Assembly: GCA_043820655.1 (NCBI GenBank)
Contig: JBDRDO010000059.1
Span: 1-55,949, forward strand
Length of the DNA: 55,949 bases
Origin: Candidatus Iainarchaeum sp.
GTDB taxonomy: Archaea > Iainarchaeota > Iainarchaeia > Iainarchaeales > JAZDEL01
Reading direction: 5' to 3'
Shown here: in pieces, positions 1,419 through 49,902 of the stretch
How positions within the stretch are numbered: the stretch's first letter is position 1
Layout of the letters: each line of letters opens with the position of its first letter
Position numbers and translations under genes: made by a program
Notes under the pieces: generated by a model
What the model saw: only the letters and a program-made list of their open reading frames with translations
Databases searched by the model: none
What the model was told of the DNA's origin: nothing

Positions 1419-4400
1419 TCAAACCTGGAACTTTTTCTCATCATCCACCCTTGCCTTTGCGCGGATGAAGTAAACCGCGGAGTAGATCGATACTATCTCA
1501 AGCACCGCGAAAAGGATTGCAAGCGGAAGGTCAACAAACCTGCTTATCAAAAGCGGGGCAACGAGGAAAAGTGCGGCAAGCAGGGCGCGCTTTAGTTTCT
1601 CACGGTTTTCAAGTTTATCAGTGAGGATTTTCTGCGGGAAGAGGATTTTGCTGTTTCTGTATGCAAGTATGCATGCAACTGCTGAAAGTGCAAAAAGCAG
1701 GAGCACAAGGAAGGGCGCCTCTGTAAAGGACGAGCCGAATATCAGCTCGGCTATTCCACCAAGCGTGCCGCCGATACTGCCTGAAAATCCAACCCCCTCA
1801 AAATACCCCTGTTCGGAGTATTTCTTCTTCCTGACACTTACGCCGTAATTGCCCGCCTCACGCACAGTGAATGTTATTTTTGCGCCTTCCGTGCTCAGGA
1901 TTTCAACAGCGCCCGAGGGCGAGGTAATCTGCGCGGAGAAGCCGTGCAGGAGGCCGAGTGTGGGATGATTAATCCCTATGCTCTGCTCCTTTCCTACAGG
2001 CACATTCGGCTCCATAATAATATCAAGAAGGTTGCTTTTCTCATCCACAGGGTCTGTAATGTCATAAAGATATTCCTGCCCGTCGAAGACATTATCCTCA
2101 TCACTATCAAGGCTTAATATATTAGTCCCTATTTCATGGAATTCCAAACCATCGTTTAGCAGGTCGCCGTCGGTGTCAGGCACATAGGGGTCTGAGCCGT
2201 TTCCCCTTTCATCGTCATCTATAAGCCCGTCATCATCGGTGTCATCGGGCTCTGTAACACAGGGCGGCTCATCAACCAGGCCGTCCTGATCATCGTCAAT
2301 TCCGTTTCCGCAGATTTCGTGGCGGGGATAACAAAGCTCGTCAATTTCCCCGTCCAGATCATTGTCTATATTGTCGCCGCAGATTTCCCCGCAGCCCTCA
2401 TCTATCAGCCCGTTTCTGTTGTCGTCAATTCCGTTTCCGCAGATTTCATAAAGTCCGCTGCAATCCTCGTCTATTTCCCCATCGGCATCATTGTCAATGC
2501 CGTCGCCGCAGATTTCCCCGCCGCAGCCCTCATCCACTATTCCGTCAAGGTCATTGTCTATTCCATCACAGCGCTCCTCGCAATCCTCATCCACAAGGCC
2601 GTTTCTGTTGTCGTCAATGTCGTTTCCGCAGGTTTCTCCGCAATTTGACTCGGGGCTTGTCATGCACTGCCACTCCCCGTTTTCGCAGAAGCACCAGTTG
2701 TGCTCGGTGAGGTCGGGGCAGGTGTATTTCCTCACATCCCCGTCATCACATACACCCTTTGGAGGGGGGTTTGAGGGACAACCATCCGCAACTGAAGAGC
2801 AGAGGCCGTTTGTGCATGCCGGCACGGAGAAACAGGACTCGTCACGCGAGGGCATTGCCTTGCAGAATGCATGTGAGCAGTTGAACTGCGTGTTCACATA
2901 ATCAAGCCAGCACTGCACGTAATCCCTGTTTATGGATGTGTTAGTGCCGCTGTGGTTGCAGTCACAGCACTGGTCCTTTATGTTAATGCAATCAGCATCG
3001 GTTTCACATTCAAAGACATTCACAGTTGTTGTGCTTTCGGGGGCACGGCCGTCCTTAAGGAGGAGCTTTATCTGTGAAAGTTCATTACTGAGTTCGGTTA
3101 AGGATGGGGGAAAGCGCAGGTCGCCCCCGTTGGGGCAGGCGGCATAAAAGCCGACCTTCTTTGAAAGGCTGCCTGGCGTGTAGGTGTAGGTTACGGAGCC
3201 TGCATCTGTCGGTGCGCGGGCGCAGTTGTAATAATCCTGGTCAAGGGAAAGGAAGCCGCCTGTTTCAACAAGGGTTTTGAAATCCGCAAGCTGCTTTGCA
3301 CTGAGCTTGCCGTGCTTGTATGACATATTTCCATAAAGATTTTCCTCGTATGCAAGTGTTCCATCGGGATACATGTAAAGGGTTTTGTCGCATCCGTTGA
3401 GGCAAAATCCGTTTCCGTAAAGGTCCTTGAAAAGGGGGGCACCGGGGCTTGAAGAAACTGAACATTCAATCTCGCCGGGAAGGGCACCATCATCAACATG
3501 ATCCCCGCGTTCGTCGGTGCATATAACCGAACAGCCCTCGTCTGTTTTGCCGTCCATGTCATCATCAATAAGGTTTCCGCAGATTTCGGTAAAGCCCTCA
3601 TCTATCACTCCGTCAAGATCATTGTCTATGTCATCACAGCAAATCTCGGGCTCGGGAACAGTGTCACCGATAATAATGCTAAGCGAGCCCCAGTTGTTGA
3701 ACTCGTCAATCTCGTGAATTGATTTTGAATCAGCCATAAACCCAATGCTGACAATTCCGTTATATGCCCCGCCCCCTGAATTCAGCAGAAGGGTAAGCTC
3801 CTGAATGCTGGTTTTGAATGTAAGCCGTGTGCGTTCTCCCGAAGCCAAAAGGGCTATTGTTTTGCTTTCAATTTCAATCCAGCTTAAGGAGGAAGACTCG
3901 GCATCGCCGCGCATTGCAAACAGGGTGTTTTCAAAATTTGCCGCAGACCTTGAGCCGCGGTTTATTAAATCAACCAGCACAACTATCTCATTTCCCGCCC
4001 TGTAACTGCCGTACGAGTATATTGCAAGGTCAACGGCATCTATTTTTTCCGTGCATCCCTCCGTGCAGCAGACAGCCCCTATATGTGTCGCATATGTGTG
4101 GCCCGGGCAGCCCTCATTGCGCCCGCAGGAGTATGTGCAGCTGCTGATTCCGCTTGTGACGGTGCCTGTGTGCGGCGTCCATGGGCAGCCCTCATCAATC
4201 TCGCCGTCCTGGTCATCATCGCGCGAGTTGCATATCTCCGCGGTTGCGCCAAGGAAGCCCACATACGCGGAATAACTGCCGGAGGAAATGTTTCCCGCGA
4301 CAAGTTCGCCTATTGCGATTGCATTCATGTCGTAAGATGCGGAACTGCCGGGCACGCCTCCGGCAAAAACGTCCGCCTCCATTTGATATGATGTGCTTGT

Positions 4401-4481
4401 CATTACCGCGGAATTCGCAAGAACTGCAAGCACAATGAGCATGGGCAAAACCGCTAAATATTTTGTTTTTTTGCCGAACAT
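1419..4481 (-). CDS. large secreted Cys-rich repeat protein (about 1020 aa) with a C-terminal polytopic membrane anchor
   Basis: The track ORF is 1419..4556. Start is preferred at MFGKKTKYLAVLPMLIVLAVLANS (signal peptide, ATG 4481-4479), 7 nt after the upstream gene's stop. It has nine CGxGIDxDxDGxxDExC repeats and acidic DxDxDG (thrombospondin-3-like) repeats. Three hydrophobic segments lie at the C-terminus. Confidence 0.85.
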   Translation of the reverse strand: MFGKKTKYLAVLPMLIVLAVLANSAVMTSTSYQMEADVFAGGVPGSSASYDMNAIAIGELVAGNISSGSYSAYVGFLGATAEICNSRDDDQDGEIDEGCPWTPHTGTVTSGISSCTYSCGRNEGCPGHTYATHIGAVCCTEGCTEKIDAVDLAIYSYGSYRAGNEIVVLVDLINRGSRSAANFENTLFAMRGDAESSSLSWIEIESKTIALLASGERTRLTFKTSIQELTLLLNSGGGAYNGIVSIGFMADSKSIHEIDEFNNWGSLSIIIGDTVPEPEICCDDIDNDLDGVIDEGFTEICGNLIDDDMDGKTDEGCSVICTDERGDHVDDGALPGEIECSVSSSPGAPLFKDLYGNGFCLNGCDKTLYMYPDGTLAYEENLYGNMSYKHGKLSAKQLADFKTLVETGGFLSLDQDYYNCARAPTDAGSVTYTYTPGSLSKKVGFYAACPNGGDLRFPPSLTELSNELSQIKLLLKDGRAPESTTTVNVFECETDADCINIKDQCCDCNHSGTNTSINRDYVQCWLDYVNTQFNCSHAFCKAMPSRDESCFSVPACTNGLCSSVADGCPSNPPPKGVCDDGDVRKYTCPDLTEHNWCFCENGEWQCMTSPESNCGETCGNDIDDNRNGLVDEDCEERCDGIDNDLDGIVDEGCGGEICGDGIDNDADGEIDEDCSGLYEICGNGIDDNRNGLIDEGCGEICGDNIDNDLDGEIDELCYPRHEICGNGIDDDQDGLVDEPPCVTEPDDTDDDGLIDDDERGNGSDPYVPDTDGDLLNDGLEFHEIGTNILSLDSDEDNVFDGQEYLYDITDPVDEKSNLLDIIMEPNVPVGKEQSIGINHPTLGLLHGFSAQITSPSGAVEILSTEGAKITFTVREAGNYGVSVRKKKYSEQGYFEGVGFSGSIGGTLGGIAELIFGSSFTEAPFLVLLLFALSAVACILAYRNSKILFPQKILTDKLENREKLKRALLAALFLVAPLLISRFVDLPLAILFAVLEIVSIYSAVYFIRAKARVDDEKKFQV
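2262..2640 (-). repeat. in-frame tandem array of six Cys-bounded acidic repeats (C-G-[ND]-[GD]-I-D-[ND]-[DN]-x-[DN]-G-x-[IV]-D-E-x-C)
   Basis: Read directly: ETCGNDIDDNRNGLVDEDC, CDGIDNDLDGIVDEGC, CGDGIDNDADGEIDEDC, CGNGIDDNRNGLIDEGC, CGDNIDNDLDGEIDELC, CGNGIDDDQDGLVDEPPC. Three further dispersed copies lie near 3530-3660 and 4190-4240. Confidence 0.9.
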
Positions 4482-4488
4482 GGTTTTG

Positions 4489-5559
4489 TCATCTCCCTGT
4501 GTACTCCAAATGATAGTGGACCTCATATCCATAAAAGTAGACCTCATGCGCGTCAAGGTCTGAAATTGTGATTGTGATCATGAAAAGATGCGGCTTGTTG
4601 TTCATTTTATAGGGCAGGCCGGTTGTGTTTGAGGAGTTCATTTCAAATTCGGTACCGCTTGTCTGGTTTGTTGTGTAATTCGCCTCAACAGTTACCGCCT
4701 GCGTGTTCGGGTCAACGCTGACTATATTTGCATCATCAACATAGAATGTTGCGCCGACATTGTAATCGTAAACAGTTATGCGGTCTATTACAGGCGTTGC
4801 GCCGAACTCAACAACATGCATCGGCAGCCCAACCTGGAGTATTCCTCCCGCTGTTCTGGAAACCCCGAACTGGTAAACATTGTCCCCGCGGTAAGTGGTG
4901 AATTCCGTTACGTTGGAGGCTGCATCGACAAAAAGGCTGAATGCGCCCTGCGTGCCCGGGTCGGGCATTACAATTTCCGTTCCGCTCTGCAGGATGAGGT
5001 TTCCTGAAAGATTAATGTCGCCTGCCGTTGGAGTTGAGGCATTGCCAGTTACTATTGTGTTTGAGACGTTCATGTCGTTGAAGTTTGCCCCTCCCAAAAG
5101 CACGACTTGTTTATCTGTTGAGATTGTAAGGTCATTGTCGGCATCGCTGTCGGAGATGCACGAGGTGCAGTTAACATCTTCCGCGGTTTTTGAGGTGTAA
5201 CAGCCGGGCAATGGGGTTAACCTGCTGCGCGGAGCCATCTCCCCGTCGTTTTCTATGTTCACGCCGAGCCAGTACTGGTCAAGGAAGTTGAAGTCTGTTA
5301 GTGCTGTGATTTCACCGAGGGTTGTGCTGAAGTAGCCGTTTGAAACGCCGACTTCATTCGCGCCCTGGTGGATTTCATTCCAGATTGCCGTGCCTCCCGT
5401 GGAAACGTTGTAAAGCGCAAAGTGCATGTTGTAATCTCCGTCGGAGTATGTGCCGGATGAGGAAAGCCTGCCCTGCACATTCATCTGGTTTACGTATGCT
5501 GTTATGGGGAGGGCCAGAAGAACAACTGCGAAAAGCGCCAGTGCAAGTTTCAGTTTCAT
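4489..5559 (-). CDS. secreted paralog 3 of a triplicated ~360-aa family
   Basis: Signal peptide MKLKLALALFAVVLLALPITAYV. Shares with its two neighbours the VQG..L....Y.M.F.IY....G...Y.E.H.GAN...V.NG.F...LG.I(T)AL...F...YW.G(I/V)......EM.PR N-domain, a DVNC[ST]xC hinge, a GD(I/V/M)N(L/V/I)SG motif and a C-terminal (R/E)(L/V).Y(H/Y) ending. Confidence 0.85.
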   Translation of the reverse strand: MKLKLALALFAVVLLALPITAYVNQMNVQGRLSSSGTYSDGDYNMHFALYNVSTGGTAIWNEIHQGANEVGVSNGYFSTTLGEITALTDFNFLDQYWLGVNIENDGEMAPRSRLTPLPGCYTSKTAEDVNCTSCISDSDADNDLTISTDKQVVLLGGANFNDMNVSNTIVTGNASTPTAGDINLSGNLILQSGTEIVMPDPGTQGAFSLFVDAASNVTEFTTYRGDNVYQFGVSRTAGGILQVGLPMHVVEFGATPVIDRITVYDYNVGATFYVDDANIVSVDPNTQAVTVEANYTTNQTSGTEFEMNSSNTTGLPYKMNNKPHLFMITITISDLDAHEVYFYGYEVHYHLEYTGR

Positions 5560-5563
5560 TTCA

Positions 5564-6649
5564 TCACTCCAAATGGTAATCCAGCCTGAAGCCGTATATG
5601 TTTACCGGCACAGGCGATGCGTCGGACTGGACATAAACGGTAATCATGTATGGCTTGCTTGAGACAAGGGTGTATGGAAGGTCCGAAGTGTCGGAGCTTG
5701 TAAGGGTTTTGCTTGTGCCGCTTGTTATGTTTGTTGTGTACGTGACAACAGGCGAGGTGCGGCGCGCGGCGCCCATGTTAATTTCCTCAATGTAGATGTC
5801 ATCAAGGTAGTTTGTTCCGTTCACGCCGTTATATTTGAGTATTATTGCGTCAAGCACCGCTGTTGAGCCGAACATGCCCTGCGGAATCGGGAAGGCAAAT
5901 GATACATTTGCGTCCGCGGTAACCTCAACCGATGTTTCAAATGCCTGTACACCGAGCGCGCCTGCAGTATTGTTCATTGATTCCGGCGCCGAAACCCAGA
6001 AGTGCATCGGGGAATCAAGTGCGCCAGAGTCGCGCGCCTGCATAATCTTTGAACCGCCGCTTAAGTGTACGTATTCCGAAATATTCATGTCTCCCAAAGC
6101 GCCTGGCATTGCACCGCCAACGGAAATAGTGTTGCCTGCGTTGAGGTCGTACACATTTATTTTTCCCGAGAGATTGACATCGTTTGATGTTATGAGTGAG
6201 ATGTTATTGTCTATTTCAGAGTCTGTTGCGCAATTTGAGCAGTTTACATCAAGCGCGATTTTGCCGGACATTGCGTATGGCTGGGGAATGAAAGGCTGCC
6301 TCGGGGACATCTCGCTGTCACTGCCGACAGTAATTCCGAGCCAGTAGTTTTGCAAGTAATTCAGGTCAAGGGCGGTTATGCTGCCGAGCTCGGCACTGTA
6401 AAAGCCGTTCTTTACGGTTACTGTATTTGCGCCTGTGTGGGATTCCGTGTAAATTGGCGTTGCGCCTGTTGGGCTGTCGTAGATTTTGAAAACCATATCA
6501 TAAGTTCCGGAAAGGTAGGATGCACCTGCACTGTCTGTTAACTTGCCCTGCACAGTGAGGTAATCAATGTACGCGTTTGCAGGCGCGCCCGCAAGGATTA
6601 AAAGGAAAAGTAAAACAAGGATTTTTTTTGCAATACCCATAATCATCAT
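5564..6649 (-). CDS. secreted paralog 2 of the triplicated family
   Basis: Signal peptide KKILVLLFLLILAGAPANA and the same conserved blocks as 4489..5559. The start overlaps the upstream stop by 4 nt (ATGA). Confidence 0.85.
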   Translation of the reverse strand: MMIMGIAKKILVLLFLLILAGAPANAYIDYLTVQGKLTDSAGASYLSGTYDMVFKIYDSPTGATPIYTESHTGANTVTVKNGFYSAELGSITALDLNYLQNYWLGITVGSDSEMSPRQPFIPQPYAMSGKIALDVNCSNCATDSEIDNNISLITSNDVNLSGKINVYDLNAGNTISVGGAMPGALGDMNISEYVHLSGGSKIMQARDSGALDSPMHFWVSAPESMNNTAGALGVQAFETSVEVTADANVSFAFPIPQGMFGSTAVLDAIILKYNGVNGTNYLDDIYIEEINMGAARRTSPVVTYTTNITSGTSKTLTSSDTSDLPYTLVSSKPYMITVYVQSDASPVPVNIYGFRLDYHLE

Positions 6650-7725
6650 CCCATGTAATATTCCAGCCTTATGAAGTGCAGGTCAATCTGGTCCCCGCTC
6701 TGCACATTGAGGTCTATGTTCAGGGAATACGGGGCATCCTGCATTGTGTAGGGCATGCCCGCCATGTTTGTGCTGTTCAGGTCAATGTAAGTGCCGGAGG
6801 TTATGTTTGTTGCATAAGTGAGGCGCGGTGTTGTGCCGTTTACATCACTGCCCATATTGTTCTGCACAAGGGCTATGTTGTCTACATGTGTTCCGCCCGT
6901 GTTTACGCCGCTGTAATAAACGCCTATTTCAGAAAGGAACATGCTTGAATTGAATTTTTCCGAGAAATTCGGCATCTTCAGCTTCAGCGTGCAGTTTGCG
7001 GTGCAGTATGCCGAGTTTGCGGTGTAGCCATCCCCGATTTTGTTTGTGTCCGAAGTTATGTACTCGGCCGCGCTTACCCAGTATACAAATGGCGTGCCGG
7101 GCATTATCAGTTTTTTATCGGGCGCAATCTCAATGTTTCCGCTGACATTTACATCTCCCGCTATGGATGGCTGGTTTGCGGTTCCGACTGCAAGCGTTGT
7201 TGTGTTTAGATTGTAAATATCTGCCGTGCCTGTTACATTGAAATCACTGGCAGTTACTATTGTGAGCCCGTTGTCAAGGTCATTGTCATTTACGCAGTTT
7301 GTGCAGTTCAGGTCGTATGACGTTGCGGGGGATGAGCAGTAAGGTGCGGAGCGTATCGGCAGGCGCGGAATCATTTCACTGTCAGTGCCGATAGTAATGC
7401 CGACAAAATACTGCGAGGGCCGGAATTCCGAGGAGCGGAAGTTAAGGTCAAGTATTGTGAGCATGCCTATATTTGTGTCAAACCAGCCACGGGTGAATGG
7501 GATTGTGTTTGCGCCTGAATGGGTTTCGGAATAAACCTCGCCGCCGCCGCTTTGCTGAGGATATATTTTGAATGTCATGTTATGCGGGACGGTTATGTAT
7601 TGGCTGTCGGTGTCAAGTGCCAGCCCCTGCACGCGGATGTATTTTGGAATAAGGGCGCTTATTGATACTGTAAGCAGGATAAGCGCAAGTGCGAGGAAAA
7701 TTAAGCGTGGTTTCATGTTATTCAC
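6646..7725 (-). CDS. secreted paralog 1 of the triplicated family (first gene of the minus-strand operon)
   Basis: Signal peptide MKPRLIFLALALILLTVSISA and the same conserved blocks. An AT-rich TATA region lies directly upstream. Confidence 0.85.
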   Translation of the reverse strand: MNNMKPRLIFLALALILLTVSISALIPKYIRVQGLALDTDSQYITVPHNMTFKIYPQQSGGGEVYSETHSGANTIPFTRGWFDTNIGMLTILDLNFRSSEFRPSQYFVGITIGTDSEMIPRLPIRSAPYCSSPATSYDLNCTNCVNDNDLDNGLTIVTASDFNVTGTADIYNLNTTTLAVGTANQPSIAGDVNVSGNIEIAPDKKLIMPGTPFVYWVSAAEYITSDTNKIGDGYTANSAYCTANCTLKLKMPNFSEKFNSSMFLSEIGVYYSGVNTGGTHVDNIALVQNNMGSDVNGTTPRLTYATNITSGTYIDLNSTNMAGMPYTMQDAPYSLNIDLNVQSGDQIDLHFIRLEYYMG

Positions 7726-7862
7726 TTAATATATATCTTTTATATATAAAATTGTTCCGCAGGGCATTAGGGAGGGACCCTGGCGCGGCAGGGGGTGCGC
7801 GGGAAAAATCGGAAAATAAGAAAACAGCAAGAATTAAATACAACTTAATGCAATAATAAGGC
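7726..7862. promoter_or_regulatory. divergent promoter region between the two surface-protein operons
   Basis: 137-bp AT-rich spacer containing ttaatatatatcttttatatataaaatt (TATA-like on both strands), located between divergently oriented starts at 7725 and 7863. Confidence 0.45.
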
Positions 7863-8321
7863 ATGCAGAAAAGTTCCAAAGGGCAGGGTGCGCTGGAATA
7901 TCTTCTCCTAATAGGCGGCGCGGTGCTTGTTGCGGTTGTTATAATTGTGCTAATTATCAATATGGTGCCCACAACGGGGGATGAGATAAACGAAACTATT
8001 GATGCGGGGCAGAGTGAGATTGACCAGGCATATCAGGATGCGCTGGCTAATGGCGGGGGCGGGTCAACAAGCACAGTTACGATTATCAACGGTGTGGTAA
8101 GCGGCGGGGATTACAGCGGCTGCGCGATTCCTCCGACACCACTGCCTTCGGACTGGTGCGACGGCAAGACCACCGGTTACTACACTTGCCCACCGGGAGA
8201 ATACTGCAAAGAAGATTGCAGTTGCGCCCCCGAACCACTCGGCGTGTTGGGTACGCCCGGTGACGAGGATGAGGCAGTAACAACCAACATGCCCGCGATT
8301 TCTTTTCCTAACGAGAGTTAG
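7863..8321 (+). CDS. archaeal type IV pilin-like protein with a class III signal peptide
   Basis: N-terminus MQKSSKGQG/ALEYLLLIGGAVLVAVVIIVLII. This is a short basic leader, then Gly, then a hydrophobic helix with a QGALEYLLL motif typical of prepilin-peptidase substrates. The C-terminal domain is Cys-rich. Confidence 0.75.
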   Translation: MQKSSKGQGALEYLLLIGGAVLVAVVIIVLIINMVPTTGDEINETIDAGQSEIDQAYQDALANGGGGSTSTVTIINGVVSGGDYSGCAIPPTPLPSDWCDGKTTGYYTCPPGEYCKEDCSCAPEPLGVLGTPGDEDEAVTTNMPAISFPNES

Positions 8322-8667: not shown

Positions 8668-10767
8668 ATGGAAAAGAAAATGGTTTTGATTCTAATTGCG
8701 CTGCTTCTTGTGCCGGCAATGGCGCTTGCTGAGCAGTGCGCACTATACAAAGGAAAGGGGGCTTCAACCACGTACGATTTGCTTACGTATGCGGGGCTTG
8801 AGAACGCCCCTGAAAGGATTGATGCATATGCAAGTACGCCGCTTTACACTATTGTCTTTGCGGGGGACACCGTATATGCATACGACAAGTCAACTAACGA
8901 GTGGGACTCGGGAAAGATTTCAGATTATTTCCCGGTAAGCAGGGTTGATGCCGCGATGTACAGCGGCAAGGACGTTGGAACAATAGTTTCCGGGAGATAC
9001 TATTATTACGTGACCGGGCCTTTATGGGAAGGCAAAGGCGCAGAGAGGCTTGGGCACAGCTGGAAAGGGCCCGTTGAACTGAAGAGGGTGGCGATGAACT
9101 ACTGGAAACCCAGGCTGCTGAGCGGCCAGGCGGAGAGTGTTGCGCCATACCCTGTTGCGCCCCAGCTTGCCGCGGCATTCAAGGACCACAGCGGCGTTGA
9201 GCAGCTCTTCATTGCGGATAATGCCCCTGTGAACGGCGTGCGCGGCATAAGGCAGTGGTGGACCGCGGGGCCGAGGGCAAATGTCTGGTTCTATGGGTTC
9301 ATGCCCTACAGGGGAATCGGCGGGGATATAGTGAATATGTCTTCCATTGATGCGATAGAACAGATAGGCAATGTATGGCTGATATTCGGGGAGGGGGACT
9401 GCATGCCCAATGTCAGGAGCGATGAAACCGTTATTGACGTGCTTGAGCATGTCATAGAGGTGCCTTACGAGAAGATACCTGCGGTGGTGAAGAACAGTAA
9501 CGACAAATACTGCGAGCAGGACACGGACTGCAAAAGCATGAACGGCTGCTTTGCAGGGTGCTGGAACGCGCACTTCAAGCCCATCATCAAGAGCGGCAGC
9601 ATATGCCCGACAATGAAGGGACCTGCAAGCTGCGCATGCGTTGAGAACACGTGCATGGCCGGCAAGCCTGGAGACATAACCGACGACCCGGGAACCATAA
9701 CTCCGGGTGTTGAACTGCCCGCATGTGAGGTGCAGTTCACGGACGCGGGATTCCACGGCACGAACAAGACTGTAACTGTAAAGGTGCAGGGAAAGGCTGC
9801 CACAATCAGCAAGGCAATATCAGGATACTACAACTTCGGAACAAGTGACCCGGAAACATGCGATGTATCGGGCAACACGGCATATTGCCCGTGCACGCAG
9901 AACACGAACGACATACGCTACGTGTCCGCGACACTCAAAACAGAAACTGTCAACGGTATAATATATGCGGTTGATGCAGCGGGCAATAAGGTTTGCAGGG
10001 CTGAGAGGGACCCGAAGTACGGCGTTGCAACATACACCTTCCTTGCGGAGGACGGCCTCAAGCGCTGCAACCCCGAGCAGGTTATGGCGGATCGTGTAAC
10101 AGTGAACACTGTGAACGCGAAATTCCATAAGTTAGTTGCGAACTATGTGCTGCAGGGCATTGACCTGACAAACATCGGCACAGAGGCAGCCACGGTCAGG
10201 GACATCAGCGTCCTTTATCCCGAGGTGCTGATAAAGCCCACTGAAGTAAACATGAAATGCAGCGACGGCAGCGAAAAATACTGCAGCTTCAGGCAGCCAG
10301 CGGTAACCGCAACGCCGATGCCGATGGTGGAGCAGTACGCGCTGACGGCAAAGGTCATGGCAGACCCTGCGCAGGCATATGAGATTCCGACGGGAAAGGT
10401 AAGGCCTTTGGAAGTGGCATGGGACCCGAACGCACAGGTTGCGGGAATGCTACACGACATCTCAGTGGTAATCGACTTCATTGACGGCTCATCGCTGGCA
10501 GTGCCGATACCCGATGTTATGGCGGAGGGCTGCACAGACAGCGACGGAGGCAGGGACCTGTTCGAGAAGGGCTATGCAACTGGCAAAAACCCAGCAAGGC
10601 CCACAGAGACAATCTCCGGAGAGGACTACTGCATAACCTCCAGCAATAAGCCGAATACTGCGGTGATGGAATACACATGCAATGGCGAATACCTAGAGAG
10701 CAATGCAATAGCATGCCCCACAAGTAGTACGGGCTGGTGCTCGAACGGCAAATGCACAGAAAAATAA
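8668..10767 (+). CDS. secreted Cys-rich protein (699 aa)
   Basis: GAGGTG lies 7 nt upstream of the ATG. Signal peptide MEKKMVLILIALLLVPAMALA. Many Cys residues. The C-terminal module is CTDSDGGRDLFEKGY...GEDYC...VMEYTCNG...CSNGKC. Confidence 0.8.
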   Translation: MEKKMVLILIALLLVPAMALAEQCALYKGKGASTTYDLLTYAGLENAPERIDAYASTPLYTIVFAGDTVYAYDKSTNEWDSGKISDYFPVSRVDAAMYSGKDVGTIVSGRYYYYVTGPLWEGKGAERLGHSWKGPVELKRVAMNYWKPRLLSGQAESVAPYPVAPQLAAAFKDHSGVEQLFIADNAPVNGVRGIRQWWTAGPRANVWFYGFMPYRGIGGDIVNMSSIDAIEQIGNVWLIFGEGDCMPNVRSDETVIDVLEHVIEVPYEKIPAVVKNSNDKYCEQDTDCKSMNGCFAGCWNAHFKPIIKSGSICPTMKGPASCACVENTCMAGKPGDITDDPGTITPGVELPACEVQFTDAGFHGTNKTVTVKVQGKAATISKAISGYYNFGTSDPETCDVSGNTAYCPCTQNTNDIRYVSATLKTETVNGIIYAVDAAGNKVCRAERDPKYGVATYTFLAEDGLKRCNPEQVMADRVTVNTVNAKFHKLVANYVLQGIDLTNIGTEAATVRDISVLYPEVLIKPTEVNMKCSDGSEKYCSFRQPAVTATPMPMVEQYALTAKVMADPAQAYEIPTGKVRPLEVAWDPNAQVAGMLHDISVVIDFIDGSSLAVPIPDVMAEGCTDSDGGRDLFEKGYATGKNPARPTETISGEDYCITSSNKPNTAVMEYTCNGEYLESNAIACPTSSTGWCSNGKCTEK

Positions 10768-41845: not shown

Positions 41846-43762
41846 ATGTTTCCGACAAGGCCGCTTTTAGATGAGACTATTTCACATGTCAGGCAGCACT
41901 ACCCCGCCCCTGATATCCAGGTAATAAAGGACGCATATGCATTTGCAAATGAAATTTATGTCGGAGGGAAAACCCCCGCGGGGAGGCAGTTCATAATGCA
42001 CCCGCTTGGCACGGCAAAAATTGTTGCAGAAATGGGGGGGGATGAAAAGGCGGTTGCCGCGGCAATGCTCCATAATGCATGGGCCACTGAAGTGCATGAC
42101 GCCGGTGGAATGACATTAACAACCAAAAAAAATGTGGAGGAACGGTTCGGCAGCGAGATTACGGCATTGATTGACAATGTCCTGAAGGAGAGTGCGCTGG
42201 AGGAGAAATACGCAAAAAAGCTTTCAAACACACTGGTGGCAAAACTAATCATGGCTTCAATGAAGGACAGGCGCGGATTTCTTATAAAACTTGCCGCAAG
42301 GCTGGACATGCTGAGGGAGGCGGGAGATTGGGGAGAAGAAGAAAGGGCGCAAATAGCGGACAAATCCCTTCAGGTTTTTGCGCCGATTTCAAACAGGCTT
42401 GGCATTTACCAGATAAAGGATGAGTTTGAGGACCTTGGCTTTAAGTACAGTCAGCCTGAAGAGTACAATAAACTTGCGGGCATGATGGAGGAAGTGGTTT
42501 CAAGAAGCGAAAGGCACCTTCTGGAGGCGGAGGATATGCTTCAAAAAAAGCTTTCAACCGCGGGAATATCCGCGGAAATAACCCATAGGGAAAAAGCAGT
42601 GTACAGCGTTTACATGAAAATGAAGCGCAAGAACTGCAAATTCAGCGAAATATACGATCTGCTGGGGATAAGGATTATAACAAAAAGCGTAAAGGACTGC
42701 TACGTTGTTTTGGGGCTGGTGCATGCGCAATGGGAGCATATTAAGGAGGAGTTTAACGATTACATAGCAAAACCCAAACAGAACAACTACCAGTCAATAC
42801 AGACAACTATAATCGGCCCTGTGGAAACACCTATAGAAATCCAGATACGGACAGGAGAGATGCACAGGCTGGCGGAACTTGGCTTTGCCGCGGACTGGAA
42901 ATACGGAAGCATTGTCGGGGAGGACAGGTATGAGAAAAGGCTGTACTGGCTTAAGCAGCTTTTTGACTGGGAAAGGCAGGCGAAAAACCCAAGTTACGGC
43001 GGGTTTGAAATAAATTACAAGGGGGACATAATTGTGGCGCTTACCCCCGAGGGGCTGCCTGTTGAATTGCCTTCCGGCGCAACAGTCCTTGATTTTGCAT
43101 ATGCAATACACAGCGGGCTTGGCAGCAGGTGCAGGGGCGCCAGGGTAAATGAGGAAATGGTTTCACTTAAACATGCGCTGAAGAACCTTGACATTGTTGA
43201 AATAATTGCCTCTAAAAACCATCAGGCAAACAGTGGCTGGCTGGGCATAGCCAAAACCGCAAAGGCAAGGAAAAAAATAAGGGCGGCACTTAAAATCAAG
43301 CCCGGAACTGCGGGAGAAACAAGTATCGGCGGGAAAGTCACAATAGACGATGGGAATTACAAGGTAAGGCTTGCAAGATGCTGCAACCCCGTGCCAGGGG
43401 ATGAGATTGCGGGGTATACGTCCACGAACAGGAAAATATCTGTGCACAGGAAAACATGCAAAGAAATTGAAAAGGCAAACGGCAGGCTATGCCATGTTGA
43501 GATTGAATGGGGCAGCGGCACGGAAACCGATTACTCTGCAAATTTGTGCGTAGAAGCGAAGGAGGGTTTTGCCGTTGTGTCGGAACTGCTCTCGGTTTTT
43601 TCAAAACAGAAGGTGCAGGTAATTTCCGGCGGGCTTCAGAGCGCAAACAATAATATTGCGAAGTATCTTTTTAACATAAAAATAAATAACATGGATGAGC
43701 TGAATAAAATAGTTTCAATGGTTGGGAAAATAAGAGGCATCAGGAAAGTCTGGAGGGAATAA
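41846..43762 (+). CDS. long RelA/SpoT homolog (HD-like, synthetase, TGS, Cys-rich helical and ACT-like domains)
   Basis: HPLGTAKIVAEMGGD..AAAMLHN (HD-like; the D of the HD dyad is N). Synthetase: YSVYMKM.RK...F.EIYDLLGIRII....DCY..LG.VH..W....EEF.DYIA.PK.N.YQS..T...GP....IEIQIRT.EMH..AE.G.AA.WKY. TGS: DIIVALTPEG..VELP.GAT.LDFAY.IHS..G. ARCCNPVPGDEI.GY. Confidence 0.85.
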   Translation: MFPTRPLLDETISHVRQHYPAPDIQVIKDAYAFANEIYVGGKTPAGRQFIMHPLGTAKIVAEMGGDEKAVAAAMLHNAWATEVHDAGGMTLTTKKNVEERFGSEITALIDNVLKESALEEKYAKKLSNTLVAKLIMASMKDRRGFLIKLAARLDMLREAGDWGEEERAQIADKSLQVFAPISNRLGIYQIKDEFEDLGFKYSQPEEYNKLAGMMEEVVSRSERHLLEAEDMLQKKLSTAGISAEITHREKAVYSVYMKMKRKNCKFSEIYDLLGIRIITKSVKDCYVVLGLVHAQWEHIKEEFNDYIAKPKQNNYQSIQTTIIGPVETPIEIQIRTGEMHRLAELGFAADWKYGSIVGEDRYEKRLYWLKQLFDWERQAKNPSYGGFEINYKGDIIVALTPEGLPVELPSGATVLDFAYAIHSGLGSRCRGARVNEEMVSLKHALKNLDIVEIIASKNHQANSGWLGIAKTAKARKKIRAALKIKPGTAGETSIGGKVTIDDGNYKVRLARCCNPVPGDEIAGYTSTNRKISVHRKTCKEIEKANGRLCHVEIEWGSGTETDYSANLCVEAKEGFAVVSELLSVFSKQKVQVISGGLQSANNNIAKYLFNIKINNMDELNKIVSMVGKIRGIRKVWRE

Positions 43763-44896
43763 CTATTCCGCCCTGAGCGCATCAACAGGGTCCATTTTCG
43801 AGGCGGCATATGCGGGATAAAATCCCGCGAAAACGCCTATAAACAGGGCAAAGAAAAAAGCCTGCAGAATCAGCGCAGGGCTTACCAGTGTTGTGAGCCC
43901 TGCAACATCCTGTATAAGGCCTGCACCTATAATTCCAAAAATAATTCCCAGTATTCCGCCGAAAATTCCTATAAGCGCGGATTCATAAAGTATCATTTTC
44001 ATTATGTCGTTATTTGTCCAGCCCACCGCTTTCAGCGAGCCTATTTCCTGAAAGCGCTCAACAACACTCATCAGCATTGTGTTGAGGATGCCTACGCCGG
44101 CAACAATTGCCGCGATTGCCGCAACCGCCCCGACAAGGAGGCGGAGGCTGCCAAGCACATCCCCGATCTGACTTGAGAAATCACTCGCCGAGCGCGCCAT
44201 CAGGTCATCCCCGTATTTGAAATTAATTATTTTTGCTATTTTCTGGTCGTCTTCGGGGGTGCGGAGTGAGAGGCTGTATTGTGTCACTTTTCCGTTTGCA
44301 AAGCCGACCAAATCGCGGAGGTCATCAATCGGCATTATCATTACGGTGTTAAGGATTGACGAGCCTGTTTCATACGTCCCCATTATTTTGAATGCCTTGC
44401 CGTTTATCTTAATCCTGTTCCCGACAAATTTGTCATTGTCCTCGGCATACTGCTTGGAGATAAGGACTGCCTTTGTGTCGCCTGCCTTGAGCTCCCTGCC
44501 GCTTACAATCTCTCCCGAAAAGCCCGCGGCGCCTTTCATTTTTTGCCCTTCAAGACCGATGCCAATAAGCCTTGTTGGTACGCCGGTCAGGCTGCCTGAT
44601 TTCCCGTCAACTGAATTTGCAAGCGCAACTATTGTCGGCACCGCCGATTCAACGCCGGGAATTGCCTCAAGCTTTGATCCATAGGATATGTCAATTTCGG
44701 AAAAAATGCCGATCTGCCCCTCCTCAAATATTGTGACGCCCTGCATGTTTGAGAATGCGTTTTCAACTTCCCCCACCATGCCGTCCACAACCGATACCAT
44801 GGTTATTATTGCGGCAACGCCTATGACTATTCCGAGAAGGGAGAGCACCGCGCGGCTCTTATTTCTGAAGATATTCAAAACAGCGACCTTTATCAT
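43763..44896 (-). CDS. ABC transporter permease, FtsX/MacB type
   Basis: N-terminal TM, large extracytoplasmic domain, and a C-terminal FtsX 3-TM bundle (EIGSLKAVGWTNNDI). Confidence 0.8.
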   Translation of the reverse strand: MIKVAVLNIFRNKSRAVLSLLGIVIGVAAIITMVSVVDGMVGEVENAFSNMQGVTIFEEGQIGIFSEIDISYGSKLEAIPGVESAVPTIVALANSVDGKSGSLTGVPTRLIGIGLEGQKMKGAAGFSGEIVSGRELKAGDTKAVLISKQYAEDNDKFVGNRIKINGKAFKIMGTYETGSSILNTVMIMPIDDLRDLVGFANGKVTQYSLSLRTPEDDQKIAKIINFKYGDDLMARSASDFSSQIGDVLGSLRLLVGAVAAIAAIVAGVGILNTMLMSVVERFQEIGSLKAVGWTNNDIMKMILYESALIGIFGGILGIIFGIIGAGLIQDVAGLTTLVSPALILQAFFFALFIGVFAGFYPAYAASKMDPVDALRAE

Positions 44897-44911
44897 GGAA
44901 TCACGGCAGGA

Positions 44912-45604
44912 TTATTTTTTCACGCGGCTCTTAGACCTGATTGAATCTATTTTTCCGTCCTTTAAATGGTATTGCCTGGTTGCATAGCGCAGCAAATCCT
45001 CATCATGCGTTACAATCACAAAAGTTTTGTTTTCCTCCTTATTGAGCCTGCGCATCTCGCGGACAATCTTGTCGCCTGTTGCGGAATCAAGATTGCCTGT
45101 CGGCTCGTCCGCAAATATTATTTCAGGGTTGTTTATAAGCGAGCGCGCTATTGATACGCGCTGGCGCTCACCCCCTGAAAGTTCTGTCGGCTTATGGAAC
45201 ATGCGCTCGCCAAGACCCATCTGGCGCAGCAGGGCCTTTGCCTTTTCCGCAACCTCCTCGGGCTGGCGGTTTGTCGGTTCTGTAGGGATGATTACGTTTT
45301 CAAGCGCGTTAAGTGTGGGGATTAAATTAAATGCCTGAAAAACAAAGCCTATTTTCTCGCGCCTTATCATTGCAAGGTGCCAGTCCTCAAGCACTGATAT
45401 GTTCCTGCCGCCAATATGGACCGAGCCGGACGTGGGATGGTCCAGTGCGCCGAGAATGTGCATAAGCGTGCTTTTCCCCGAACCGCTGGGTCCGACAATA
45501 ATCACGAAGTCCCCCTTATTTATTTTCAAAGAAACCCCCCTGAGTGCGTGCACAGTGGTTGTGCCCATTTTGTACTGCTTGGTTATGTTTTTGGCTTCTA
45601 TCAT
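44912..45604 (-). CDS. ABC transporter ATP-binding protein (MacB/LolD family)
   Basis: Walker A GPSGSGKST, signature LSGGERQR, Walker B IIFADEPTGNLD. Confidence 0.9.
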   Translation of the reverse strand: MIEAKNITKQYKMGTTTVHALRGVSLKINKGDFVIIVGPSGSGKSTLMHILGALDHPTSGSVHIGGRNISVLEDWHLAMIRREKIGFVFQAFNLIPTLNALENVIIPTEPTNRQPEEVAEKAKALLRQMGLGERMFHKPTELSGGERQRVSIARSLINNPEIIFADEPTGNLDSATGDKIVREMRRLNKEENKTFVIVTHDEDLLRYATRQYHLKDGKIDSIRSKSRVKK

Positions 45605-45605
45605 T

Positions 45606-46742
45606 TTATCTCCCCCCTCTTATCGCATGCACAGGGTCAAGGCGCGAGGCGCGTATTGCGGGATAAACTCCTGCAATCAACCCTATAAGGAATGCAAAGC
45701 CGAAAGCCTGAAAAACCAATGGCATTGTTATTGCATAACTGAGGCCGAATGCCTGCTCAAGGAAAACATCCGCAAGGAAACCCAGGACAAGGCCGAAAAC
45801 CCCGCCAAGCATGCCGAGGAACATTGATTCATAAAGGATCATGCGCATTATGTCCAGATTTGTCCAGCCCACTGCCTTCAGTGCACCTATTTCCTTTGTG
45901 CGCTCCATTATGCTCATCAGGATTGTGTTTATTATGCCAATACCCCCCACTATTGCGGAAATTCCCGCAATGAAGAACACAAGCAGCCTGAAGTTGCCAA
46001 GTACATCCCCCATCTGGTCTGAGAAGTCTGAAGACGTGTACGCCTCAAGGTCATCCCTGAACCTGAAGTTTATTTCCTGTGTAACGCGCTTATCCATGGA
46101 AGGGTCGGTAAGGCTCATGTAGAAATCGTTCACCTTATCGTCAGGAAATCCCGAAAGGTCGCGTGCGTCCTCTATGCTCATCACAACCATGCTGCCAAGC
46201 AAATCCGAGCCTGCACGGTAAATTCCCTTTACCTTGAATTTTTTCCCGTCAATCTTAAATGTGCTGCCGGGGAATTTGCTATATTCGTCCGCAATCTGAT
46301 TGCCAAGGACAACGTATCCGGTGTCGCCCGGGCGCAGGAATGCTCCCTGCTCTATTTCCCCGACCCATGGATTGCCGCCCATTAAGATGTATTTTCTGAC
46401 ATCAAGGCCGTATATTGCGGTGCTCATCATGTTTGAGACTGAGCCGCCCTCCAGCGAGGATGGGACAATCCATATCTCAGGCATTACATATTTGACACCC
46501 TGCACTGATTTCAGTTTTGATTCGTATGAGGCGTCAACCTTTGAGAGGGTCTGGTCAAGGGCGTCCTTTTCCATCACATAAACGCCCTGAAACTGACCTA
46601 TGACATCATTTATTTCACCATAAATTCCGTCAACAATTGAGACAAGGACAATTATTGAGGCAACGCCTATGATTATGCCAAGCAATGCAAGGCCTGTGCG
46701 GCTCTTCCTCCTGAAAAGGTTTAGAAAAGATAACTTAATCAT
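45606..46742 (-). CDS. ABC transporter permease, FtsX/MacB type (second copy)
   Basis: Same architecture as 43763..44896 (EIGALKAVGWTNLDI). 1-nt spacing to the ATPase gene. Confidence 0.8.
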   Translation of the reverse strand: MIKLSFLNLFRRKSRTGLALLGIIIGVASIIVLVSIVDGIYGEINDVIGQFQGVYVMEKDALDQTLSKVDASYESKLKSVQGVKYVMPEIWIVPSSLEGGSVSNMMSTAIYGLDVRKYILMGGNPWVGEIEQGAFLRPGDTGYVVLGNQIADEYSKFPGSTFKIDGKKFKVKGIYRAGSDLLGSMVVMSIEDARDLSGFPDDKVNDFYMSLTDPSMDKRVTQEINFRFRDDLEAYTSSDFSDQMGDVLGNFRLLVFFIAGISAIVGGIGIINTILMSIMERTKEIGALKAVGWTNLDIMRMILYESMFLGMLGGVFGLVLGFLADVFLEQAFGLSYAITMPLVFQAFGFAFLIGLIAGVYPAIRASRLDPVHAIRGGR

Positions 46743-46763
46743 AAATATTCATTGGGCTGGGGG

Positions 46764-47993
46764 CTATGCCTTACGCATTGCGAGCTGCCTGAAGACCATC
46801 TTTATTATGAAGTAGAGGAGCACGAGAATAATTACTATCAGGATAAGCAGGCCTATCGGCGATTCTGCAGGGCGGGGGTGTATGTAAAGATCTATACTGG
46901 TCTGGATTTTCTGTTCCTCGTTGAGCTCATCACGATAGGTTATGAGTATAGGGACATTGCGCTCGCCAAGTTCTGCGGTCGGGCTGACAACAAGCGTGAA
47001 AAGGCCCGAGCCTGAATCATCATCATCAATGTTCCCGACATAGCTTTCAAGTATGCCCTCTATCCCGGCATCAGGAGATAGCGCAACGCGTGTTGCCTTT
47101 GCCGTTTCCTTGCCTATATTGTCAAGCTGCACCGACAGGGTGAGCGTGTCCGCCTGCATTATGCGCTTGTCATCCCCGCGGTTCTCTATTGAGAAGTCAA
47201 TTCCCGAAATTATAAGGTCGGGCCTGCCAAACAAATCAAAGGAAAAGGACTGTTTTGCGGAGGAACTGCAGTCAAGGCAGTTTGCGTCTATTTCAAAGAC
47301 ATATGTCTTGGGCGCGCCCTTGTCGGAAGCCTTAAGGGAGTAACTAACCGGCTTTGATTCATACGGCCCGATGTCGCCGAGATCTACGATTGTGTCGGAA
47401 AGTGAAATAAAGGGATCTAGGGTGCTGTTTGTTTGGGGCCTCAGGTTAACACTTACGTTCCTTGCCTCGCCGGAGCAGTTGTTTGTCACTTTCGCCATTA
47501 TTCTGAACATCTCATTTAAGTGGGGGGCATATGTGTCAAGTTTAACATCCCCGACATCAAGGCTGTAGCATTCCGTAACCAGGAGATCTGCGTCGTAGCT
47601 GTGTTCCACGGCATCATTGCCGTTTTTATATTTCAGGTTCACTGAGAACTTGTATGTTCCGGGATACGCATTCTCCCTTACCTTGAAGCGGAATACCGCG
47701 TTTTTCAGGGAACCGGGATGTATTGTGCCAAGACCCTCCTCAACATGAATTGACTCAAAATAATTCTCATTAAGGGAAAGTGTGGCAATAACCTCCTTTG
47801 CAGGGACGTTGCCGGATGTGCTCTCAATCTGCACATTGAAATTTACCGTATCTCCCGCATAAACAGTTGCAGGATTCTGTGAAAATGTATTAGCCTTAAG
47901 GAGCGTATTGTACGACTGTGCACCGGCTGTGCCTGCAATAAGCAGAAGGAGCATTGCAATTGAAAACAAAAATCTAAACTTATTGCCTTGCAT
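46764..47993 (-). CDS. secreted repeat-domain (CARDB/COG1361-like) protein with a C-terminal TM anchor
   Basis: Signal peptide LFSIAMLLLLIAGTAGAQS. About three ~110-aa beta-sandwich-like repeats (..V.N.G...A.NV.V.L..). C-terminal TM plus a basic tail. First gene of the ABC operon. Confidence 0.7.
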   Translation of the reverse strand: MQGNKFRFLFSIAMLLLLIAGTAGAQSYNTLLKANTFSQNPATVYAGDTVNFNVQIESTSGNVPAKEVIATLSLNENYFESIHVEEGLGTIHPGSLKNAVFRFKVRENAYPGTYKFSVNLKYKNGNDAVEHSYDADLLVTECYSLDVGDVKLDTYAPHLNEMFRIMAKVTNNCSGEARNVSVNLRPQTNSTLDPFISLSDTIVDLGDIGPYESKPVSYSLKASDKGAPKTYVFEIDANCLDCSSSAKQSFSFDLFGRPDLIISGIDFSIENRGDDKRIMQADTLTLSVQLDNIGKETAKATRVALSPDAGIEGILESYVGNIDDDDSGSGLFTLVVSPTAELGERNVPILITYRDELNEEQKIQTSIDLYIHPRPAESPIGLLILIVIILVLLYFIIKMVFRQLAMRKA

Positions 47994-48089
47994 TACAATA
48001 TAAAAAAGCGCAATTAATTTAAATACGGCACTATGAATGCGTGATGAAAGGTATAAATATTAGTTCAGTTCATAGTTATTCGTGATTAA

Positions 48090-48830
48090 ATGAAGCGTGT
48101 TGCCACAGGCGTTAAGGGGCTTGATGATTTAATAGAGGGCGGCCTTCCCGAGGGCAGGTCTGTTCTGCTTTCAGGGGCGTGCGGAACAGGAAAAACGATA
48201 CTTTCAATGCAGTACATATACCACGGCGCGAAGCAGTATTCCGAACCCGGGGTTTATGTGACACTTGATGAAAGGCCTGATTTGATACGGCAGGATGTGC
48301 TCAGGTTCGGCTGGGATTTAAGGAAGCTTGAGGATGAGAACCTAATGCAGATTGTTGACGGGAGCATTGCAAAACTTGGGCTGCCTAGTGACGAGGAATT
48401 TTCAATGCCTGCAACAGGATTTGACCTTGATAAATTGCTGCTTGAGATAATGCGTGTTTCGAAGAGAATAGGGGCAAAGAGGGTCGTTATTGACAGCATT
48501 CCTGCGCTGGGATTTAATTTTGAGAACGACAATGATGTGCGGAAGGCGATACTGAAGCTTAGTTATATGCTGATGCGCACGGGGGTTACTTCAATACTCA
48601 CTTCGGAGGTGCAGGAGGGCGAAAACAAGTTCGGCAAGTATGGAGTAGAGGAGTATGTTGTTGACGGAGTCATAGTTCTGCACTATGTGGGAATTGGCGC
48701 GCAGAGCAACAGGACTTTACACATAAGGAAGATGCGGGCAACAAACCATTCCGAGGATCTGCACCCGATAAAAATAACAAACAAGGGAATGGTTGTGCAC
48801 AAAATAGAGGAAGATTATAAGGACACTTAA
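48090..48830 (+). CDS. KaiC/RecA-superfamily single-domain ATPase
   Basis: V.TGV.GLDDLIEGGLPEGRSVLLSGACGTGKT (Walker A), Walker B VVIDSI, and a KaiC-like C-terminus (R.L.I.KMR...H). Confidence 0.8.
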   Translation: MKRVATGVKGLDDLIEGGLPEGRSVLLSGACGTGKTILSMQYIYHGAKQYSEPGVYVTLDERPDLIRQDVLRFGWDLRKLEDENLMQIVDGSIAKLGLPSDEEFSMPATGFDLDKLLLEIMRVSKRIGAKRVVIDSIPALGFNFENDNDVRKAILKLSYMLMRTGVTSILTSEVQEGENKFGKYGVEEYVVDGVIVLHYVGIGAQSNRTLHIRKMRATNHSEDLHPIKITNKGMVVHKIEEDYKDT

Positions 48831-48842
48831 GTTAAGCGAAAA

Positions 48843-49901: not shown

Positions 49902-49902
49902 G

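Follow-up and report, generated by a model that had tools for sequence, protein, structure and literature searches.

Three tandem putative mini-fiber adhesins and a candidate membrane anchor encoded in a four-gene operon of an Iainarchaeum archaeon

A 55,949-nucleotide (nt) stretch of DNA from Candidatus Iainarchaeum sp. (contig JBDRDO010000059.1 of GenBank assembly GCA_043820655.1, positions 1 to 55,949; the whole stretch is hereafter called the window) carries an operon of four genes, A to D, the first three of which are diverged tandem paralogs. Each paralog encodes a small modular protein in which a Sec signal peptide precedes a beta-rich N-module of ~100 amino acids (aa), a hinge bearing a CxxC and one shaft unit, and finally a C-terminal domain of ~165 aa (hereafter, the knob). 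On balance, we lean toward reading A, B, and C as secreted, N-glycosylated mini-fiber adhesins, which follow the plan of the MAT fibers of Bdellovibrio bacteriovorus, are displayed on the product of D, and serve for attachment to another cell. The window is a segment of a cellular archaeal chromosome, encoding ribosomal protein S19e, SRP54, FtsY, RPA, class I lysyl-tRNA synthetase (LysRS), Rpr2, and NrdD, and its closest named relatives are metagenome-assembled genomes (MAGs) labelled Ca. Micrarchaeota, Ca. Diapherotrites, and Ca. Iainarchaeum (DPANN/Nanobdellati). The components of the operon are as follows (positions are those of the window):

7741 to 7750, minus strand: TATA-box-like element tttatatata, read from the sequence, with a putative function.
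6646 to 7725, minus strand: gene A, probably of 356 aa with ATG 7716 as the start (359 aa if GTG 7725 is used).
Modules of A, minus strand, behind the signal peptide: N-module ~7650-7336; hinge and shaft 7335-7144, with the CxxC at 7305-7294; knob 7143-6649.
5564 to 6649, minus strand: gene B, 361 aa, or 358 aa if the start is 6640.
Modules of B, minus strand: N-module ~6571-6275; hinge and shaft 6274-6062, with the CxxC at 6241-6230; knob 6061-5567.
4489 to 5559, minus strand: gene C, 356 aa.
Modules of C, minus strand: N-module ~5505-5203; hinge and shaft 5202-4987, with the CxxC at 5169-5158; knob 4986-4492.
1419 to 4481, minus strand: gene D, 1020 aa from ATG 4481, the last gene of the operon.
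4242 to 4403, minus strand: PamT-like motif of D with three SxNY repeats (aa ~27-80, STSYQMEADVFAGGVPGSSASYDMNAIAIGELVAGNISSGSYSAYVGFLG), the proposed docking site of the N-modules.

The A and B genes overlap in an ATGA, and the spacers between B and C and between C and D measure 4 and 7 nt, respectively, with GGAG-like motifs upstream; junctions that overlap or span only 4-7 nt define a four-gene operon A-B-C-D. Translation of A most likely begins not at GTG 7725 but at ATG 7716, which yields the 356-aa protein of database entry P0007, whereas for B any of three ATGs, from 6649 to 6640, is possible. The tttatatata element lies ~25-34 nt upstream of ATG 7716, a spacing that fits a leaderless archaeal transcript, and is probably the promoter of such an A-B-C-D transcript. 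A preliminary description of this DNA, made from the letters alone, had delimited the unit as 4489-7725; its three genes are retained here, but its extent stops one gene short, because D belongs to the operon.

The same description had presented the three genes as tandem paralogs with a set of shared motifs, and nearly all of this was borne out. The proteins can be aligned over their full length with few gaps; identity to A is 33-34% in the three-way alignment, and the pairwise BLASTP comparisons (A versus C, 33% identity, E 3e-54; B versus C, 37%, E 7e-69) are far beyond chance. The proposed V-Q-G, F.(I/L)Y, E.H.GAN, and EM.PR motifs are present, as are the D(V/L)NC(S/T)xC..D...DN hinge and the C-terminal (R/E)(L/V)xY(H/Y) ending in all three proteins. 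In the proposed GD.N.SG motif, G-D-x-N-x-S is shared, but the last G is not invariant, B reading GDMNISE. All three carry a Sec-type signal peptide, as had been noticed, and have no hydrophobic segment besides it. The reported abundance of N-x-S/T sequons was also substantiated: their density is 2.2-3.1 per 100 aa versus 0.37 in 31 other open reading frames (ORFs) of the window, a 6- to 8-fold difference, and their number is about twice that expected from the composition of each protein (shuffle p 0.01-0.05). The proteins are thus acidic, secreted, and sequon-rich. Searches of A, B, and C against Pfam, PHROGs, and PDB sequences yielded nothing significant, and none of them has a PF04021 class III signal peptide, which was matched only by the divergent neighbor at 7863-8321. 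The three proteins are members of no curated family tested. A fold search with a full-length model of B returned generic jelly rolls only (query TM-score [TMq] <=0.24) and was disregarded, the model being too poor (see below).

The N-module, beta-rich in the model, provides the first link to known fibers. The preliminary description had pointed to a likeness to the N-termini of bacterial adhesins annotated with a tail-fiber domain, and this likeness agrees with sub-threshold matches to NCBIfam NF053851 (Bdello_MAT_N). The matching proteins are B (22.5 bits), C (17.0), an A ortholog (P0008, 22.9), a C ortholog (P0009, 15.2), and six unrelated N-module proteins, that is, ten independent matches scoring 15-33 bits against a cut-off of 60; A of the window has no match to this model. 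All matches fall on profile positions ~2-80 of 162, straight after the signal peptide. In Bdellovibrio, all 21 MATs have a beta-rich, conserved domain ~130 aa in length directly behind the signal peptide, which lacks homologues in the PDB and whose binding partner is presumed to be an unidentified element of the cell surface (PMC10769870). The partial, sub-threshold matches are consistent with the N-module being a remote homolog of this domain. A search with a hidden Markov model (HMM) of the module turned up 17 metagenome loci, those inspected being bacterial, in which it forms the N-terminus of proteins whose C-termini are unrelated; many bacterial and archaeal proteins begin with this module and continue into unrelated C-terminal parts. 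One bacterial locus (L007, 7854-10645) contains a tandem array of three N-module genes, each of ~300 aa and with a different C-terminal domain, the third being split by a frameshift and ending in an H-type lectin (PF09458, E 1.4e-19). This array is a clear example of an arrangement of variant tip adhesins.

The region between the N-module and the knob had been described as a CxxC hinge. Its conservation is not in question, but it is not a stand-alone element: the CxxC and the following GD-x-N-x-S together form one copy of a ~35-aa repeat, the shaft unit, with the consensus D-h-N-h-S-G ... DLN..N..VG.A ... GD-h-N-h-S-G. The unit recurs in two long archaeal proteins that both start with the N-module: P0020, 1244 aa, of a Ca. 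Diapherotrites archaeon, which also has a YadA_head match, contains 7 matched stretches, and P0040, 1579 aa, of Altiarchaeales, which also has beta-helix repeats, contains 4. Since the unit is repeated in these long N-module fibers, A, B, and C look like minimal versions of them. The D-x-N-x-(S/T)-G-x-(I/V) loops appear, from their residue pattern, to fit the dockerin/EF-hand calcium loop, and Dockerin_1 is weakly matched by B, at E 0.003, and by P0020, at E 8.6e-8 when its repeats are summed. The invariant D(V/L)NC(S/T)xC..D..(D/E) stretch appears to fit the calcium-loop pattern as well, with the two cysteines at loop positions 4 and 7, and the central N-x-S of each shaft loop doubles as a glycosylation sequon.

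The beta-rich nature of the C-terminal domain had been recognized from the outset; overlooked was that this domain is a distinct, recurrent family. An exhaustive search of 1.84 billion cluster representatives, using a profile of everything past the N-module as the query (E<=1e-3), retrieved 39 clusters, 3 of which correspond to the A, B, and C types, 2 share the shaft repeat only, and ~34 share the knob only. In the latter, the common part is the last 110-170 residues, nearly always at the C-terminal end of the protein, which closes with a conserved ...YG(F/I)x(V/I)(E/K)YH(L)E. Knob carriers are diverse, including secreted proteins, CBM_4_9-containing proteins, and phage-tail-fiber-like proteins; two of them (P0029 and P0030) have PHROG tail-fiber matches, and one (P0052) also has the N-module. 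Two more belong to tail modules of uncultivated tailed viruses: the gene for P0053 follows the adaptor gene in a podovirus-like structural module (L003, 7504-10648), and the gene for P0025 closes a tail module in which a tape-measure protein is also encoded (L023, 1936-11344). The 102-kb contig of the latter was binned to a Promethearchaeota (Asgard) MAG, and its source might be either a virus of archaea or a phage that was mis-binned. Three different knob members, used as tblastn queries, found no match in 50,697 deposited phage genomes, and viral contig scans with single proteins detected no relatives; a word-indexed search with the 35-sequence knob alignment returned one protein and is uninformative on the distribution of the family.

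Modelling of the knob from the 35-sequence alignment produced a confident beta-sandwich/jelly roll (predicted local distance difference test [pLDDT] 90.3, predicted TM-score [pTM] 0.85). Its best structural neighbors are the C-terminal domains of models of Klebsiella and Achromobacter phage tail fibers or spikes (TMq 0.56-0.58), followed in the Foldseek search by carbohydrate-binding modules (CBMs) of the CBM6/15/16/86 types (TMq 0.35-0.49). Judging by the model, the knob shares a fold class with CBMs and phage tips and has no close relative among them. No Pfam, PHROG, or NCBIfam model covers the domain, and the knob family appears to be undescribed.

The presence of the knob in tail modules of tailed viruses could suggest that A, B, and C are remnant or domesticated viral tail-fiber genes, from a provirus or a tailocin-like element. 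However, no other viral gene lies nearby, the flanks encoding Rpr2, SpoIIM, S19e, SRP54, and FtsY; the proteins have Sec signal peptides and no PHROG matches; and the chromosomal position is conserved in three lineages. We therefore regard a viral origin of this kind as extremely improbable.

D differs from the paralogs in being the only one of the four proteins with transmembrane (TM) segments beyond the signal peptide. Behind its signal peptide come a ~55-aa motif, a region that weakly matches CARDB (a domain clearly present in the ortholog from L001), Cys-rich acidic repeats, and C-terminal TM helices. The repeats comprise many of the MopE/'double-disulfide' type, with 49 Cys in the protein, and there are two to three TM helices (aa 913-944 and 962-1008). 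The ~55-aa motif consists of three S-x-(N/S)-Y repeats and ends in GF(L/W) (hereafter, the SxNY motif); its region has a weak match (25.6 bits) to NCBIfam CPR_pilus_PamT, over the first ~80 positions of that model. We built an HMM from six instances of the motif and scanned the 3925 ORFs of all fetched loci, and the only matches were ORFs directly adjoining N-module genes:

L007, 5810-7843: ORF with the SxNY motif.
L008, 1759-2277: ORF with the SxNY motif.
L010, 9005-9334 and 11047-11394: two ORFs with the SxNY motif.
L012, 10570-11130: ORF with the SxNY motif.
L014, 10003-10581: ORF with the SxNY motif.
L015/L020, 11194-11772: ORF with the SxNY motif.
L016, 1871-2317: ORF with the SxNY motif.
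L017, 2571-3026: ORF with the SxNY motif.

Matches outside the seed set were those in L016 (2e-5), L017 (4e-5), L010 (the second ORF, L010b; 9e-5), L008 (3e-4), and L012 (6e-3). The SxNY ORF lies downstream of the N-module gene and carries its motif behind the signal peptide everywhere except in L007, where the motif forms the C-terminus of the upstream gene. The motif belongs to no Pfam family, and 6 of 8 motif proteins match the first ~80 positions of CPR_pilus_PamT. The pairing was observed in six independent bacterial metagenome lineages and in the archaeon of the window; it is frequent, not universal, and a partial ORF downstream of the long Diapherotrites fiber gene (P0020) is devoid of the motif. 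The gene pairing appears to be undescribed. Independently, a 'tail fibre-like protein' has been reported to be consistently co-located with pam operons in candidate phyla radiation (CPR) bacteria (bioRxiv 10.64898/2026.03.03.709456).

The weak PamT likeness of the D N-terminus also bears on a pilus-like explanation, according to which the two-domain A, B, and C would polymerize head to tail through strand exchange, in the manner of the CPR Pam pilus, and D would be the terminator. Pam pilins (PamA/B/E) consist of a nine-strand N-terminal domain, a linker strand, and a truncated immunoglobulin (Ig) C-terminal domain, and the PamC/D chaperones are encoded in the operon (bioRxiv 10.64898/2026.03.03.709456). 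Three paralogous pilins of two beta-domains and a membrane-anchored terminator with an N-terminal strand parallel the A-D set, and a pilin-like gene adjoins the operon. On the other hand, A, B, and C match no NCBIfam Pam model at E<=1, chaperone-like genes are missing from the cluster, the jelly roll modelled for the C-terminal domain (pLDDT 90) is complete in the absence of a donated strand, and the relatives of all three modules are in fiber or tail proteins, so that we consider a Pam-like heteropolymer very improbable.

The copy number proposed as a check was found to be stable: the A-B-C order, with one copy of each gene, is retained in three other assemblies, namely, L001/L004 (Ca. Iainarchaeum), L002, and the near-identical L024, in all of which D and the divergent class III signal peptide gene recur as well. 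No further full-length relatives were found in a representative library, among GTDB species representatives (which returned only the already known Ca. Iainarchaeum contig), or in a scan of JGI metagenomes, and the A/B/C family is limited to a narrow clade. The N-module is 34-48% identical between paralogs and 56-76% between orthologs; the corresponding values are 36-49% and 56-68% for hinge and shaft and 23-30% and 52-58% for the knob. The knobs, most diverged between paralogs and yet kept between orthologs, are thus fixed distinct tips rather than hypervariable ones. In comparison with a close strain, the genes are under purifying selection, with ratios of nonsynonymous to synonymous substitution rates (dN/dS) of 0 for A, 0.13 for B, 0.3 for C (only four changes), and 0.18 for D, all based on few substitutions; distant orthologs are too diverged for dS. 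Positive selection was considered and is not seen against the close strain, given the same values of 0-0.3 and few substitutions.

A separate peculiarity concerns a ~140-nt patch in the N-module of B (6320-6457): over 6.3 kb, 70 differences from L024 were counted in the window, and 31 of them lie in this patch. Most of these 31 are synonymous, with a local dS of ~0.35 versus 0.01-0.02 elsewhere, and the patch either was acquired by recombination from a divergent B allele or results from a strain-chimeric assembly. Gene conversion from A or C was not supported as its source, as the variant sites of one strain match A or C no better than those of the other.

Strict conservation of one A-B-C set in every lineage found, with only three full-length clusters in the exhaustive search, would also be expected of an obligate heterotrimer, a pseudo-threefold mini-fiber with a mixed knob, in which translational coupling would ensure a 1:1:1 ratio and each chain would engage one SxNY strand. 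The nearly equal lengths of the three proteins, gaps of only 1-2 residues in the shaft region, the hinge and shaft being the part best kept between paralogs (36-49%) while the diverged knobs are conserved between orthologs, the overlapping or 4-7-nt gene junctions, and the three SxNY repeats in D all agree with such an assembly. Nevertheless, bacterial tandem N-module genes bear unrelated tips that would be unable to co-trimerize (as in L007, where one of the three copies has an H-type lectin), the three-repeat motif is also paired with N-module genes that stand singly, and in the known MATs and phage fibers the trimer is described as consisting of a single gene product (PMC10769870). These arrays and fibers speak for separate homo-oligomers, and the obligate heterotrimer is possible but doubtful.

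A plainer role, in which A, B, and C would be general envelope components, such as S-layer-associated or glycan-shield glycoproteins decorating D without a specific ligand, would fit their secretion, acidity, and very high sequon content, the housekeeping genomic context, and the lack of any sign of diversifying selection on the knobs. It sits poorly with the relatives of every module being fiber, adhesin, or tail proteins and with the restriction of the family to a very narrow clade, and the sole S-layer match is insignificant (8q1o, E about 1). We hold this role to be improbable.

The interpretation of A, B, and C as mini-fiber adhesins keeps, in qualified form, the initial suggestion of a fiber or adhesin, which is now supported also by the shaft unit in the 1244- and 1579-aa archaeal fibers and by the knob in viral tail modules. 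Under this interpretation, the three proteins would be produced with D from one leaderless operon, exported via Sec, and N-glycosylated, and would trimerize; the N-module would act as the docking domain, the CxxC loop with the single shaft repeat as a short stalk, and the jelly-roll knob as the tip. D would be a long Cys-rich anchor with acidic, putatively metal-binding repeats and C-terminal TM helices. D is anchored in the membrane and A, B, and C lack an anchor; most simply, the N-modules would bind the PamT-like motif of three SxNY repeats at the N-terminus of D, which would hold the fibers at the surface. The three diverged knobs might then provide three fixed binding specificities for the surface of a host or partner cell, an attachment role being expected from the DPANN lifestyle.

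Several observations weigh against these proposals. No match reaches a curated family threshold, and the MAT_N match covers the first half of the model only. With one ~35-aa shaft unit each, A, B, and C are a third of the MAT length, so that a true fiber shaft is no more than putative. The knob of some viral relatives has a CBM_4_9 domain in front of it, so that the knob may serve in trimerization or as a folding nucleus rather than in receptor or ligand binding. The SxNY motif was not found in five loci with downstream sequence (L005, L011, L018, L019, and L021) or in L022, where the downstream gene is only partly covered. The A-B-C-D order is known from three related lineages only, in which the flanking Rpr2 and SpoIIM genes are also common, and could simply reflect relatedness. 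Finally, the full-length monomer model of B is poor (pLDDT 49, with residues 121-247 below 35); this could reflect a shallow alignment of 9 sequences rather than an obligate oligomer.

A more far-reaching version of the docking proposal, which we regard as rather unlikely, casts the MAT-like N-domain as a universal plug and the ~55-aa motif of three SxNY repeats as its socket, with one repeat for each chain of a trimer, and A, B, and C as a heterotrimeric, C1q-like head on D. The socket may be encoded by an adjacent gene in Chloroflexi-like, Planctomycete-like, and CPR bacteria and may be fused to a membrane-anchored stalk, D, in the archaeon. If true, this would expose the long-sought docking partner of MAT-type fibers, reveal a cross-domain system for exchangeable adhesin tips, and put a name to the apparatus by which an uncultivated DPANN lineage recognizes its host.

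The presumed lifestyle of DPANN archaea is one of attachment to host cells, and, to our knowledge, the molecules with which they recognize their hosts are largely unknown. The operon offers concrete candidates for this function, in the form of three knobs and one stalk, and would extend the modular MAT-type fiber design from predatory bacteria to archaea. It further brings to light an apparently undescribed knob domain common to cells and tailed viruses, and the pair of N-module and SxNY motif suggests a binding partner for the conserved fiber N-domain, a question left open by the Bdellovibrio work. Full-text searches found no paper tying DPANN archaea to MAT-like or tail-fiber-like surface proteins, which is limited evidence of absence.

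Outside the operon, several genes of the window deserve mention:

7863 to 8321, plus strand: class III signal peptide (archaeal type IV pilin-like) gene with a PF04021 match, divergent from the operon; a conserved neighbor in L001, L002, and L024.
8668 to 10767, plus strand: gene for a 699-aa secreted Cys-rich protein, divergent from the operon; a conserved neighbor in L002, which has two paralogs of it.
41846 to 43762, plus strand: full-length RelA/SpoT homolog with HD, RelA_SpoT, TGS, and ACT domains.
43763 to 52098, minus strand: second run of minus-strand ORFs, with CARDB (46764-47993) and Big_7 (49903-52098).

The pilin-like gene and the gene for the 699-aa protein are no more than possible members of the A-D system. 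Long RelA/SpoT homologs appear to be unusual in archaea. The second ORF run is possibly another cluster of surface-protein genes.

Comparison with known systems places the individual parts of the operon near different relatives. Membership of the knob in a CBM6/16-like family is not supported, as there is no Pfam match and the similarity to PDB CBMs is limited (TMq 0.35-0.49, 10-16% identity). Models of phage tail fiber and tailspike tips in BFVD (Klebsiella phages KpV79 and KpV767 and Achromobacter phage phiAxp-3) represent the extreme C-terminal beta-jelly-roll of an elongated receptor-binding protein, as the knob would be, and sequence relatives of the knob occur in the tail modules of the two uncultivated tailed viruses; similarity is moderate across viral tips and PDB CBMs (TMq 0.56-0.58 and 0.35-0.49, respectively; 10-17% identity), and, unlike phage tail fibers, A, B, and C are flanked by cellular housekeeping genes and not part of a viral structural module. 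PamT (NCBIfam NF058579; bioRxiv 10.64898/2026.03.03.709456) resembles D in having an SxNY-type motif after the signal peptide, and the 'tail fibre-like protein' next to pam operons recalls the operon described here. Yet the motif proteins score 14-34 bits against a cut-off of 240 and cover only the first ~80 of 241 model positions, and D is a 1020-aa membrane-anchored multi-repeat protein in a cluster without Pam pilins or chaperones.

The closest known system is the MAT fiber family of Bdellovibrio bacteriovorus (Caulton et al. 2024, PMC10769870). Unlike MATs, which measure ~1000 aa and contain long beta-helices, A, B, and C are proteins of 356-361 aa with one shaft unit; the N-module matches reach 15-33 bits against the cut-off of 60, over the first half of NF053851; they lack the S74 chaperone-protease (no Pfam match), their knob being a different domain; and they are encoded in an archaeal host by a fixed three-gene operon with an anchor-like fourth gene. 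A discrete C-terminal knob without an S74 match corresponds to the non-S74 type of MAT tip. In both systems, a beta-rich N-domain stands straight after the signal peptide, a constant N-domain is combined with a stalk and an exchangeable C-terminal beta-sandwich tip, and several paralogs are encoded in the genome of an organism that must, or in the archaeon presumably must, recognize another cell.

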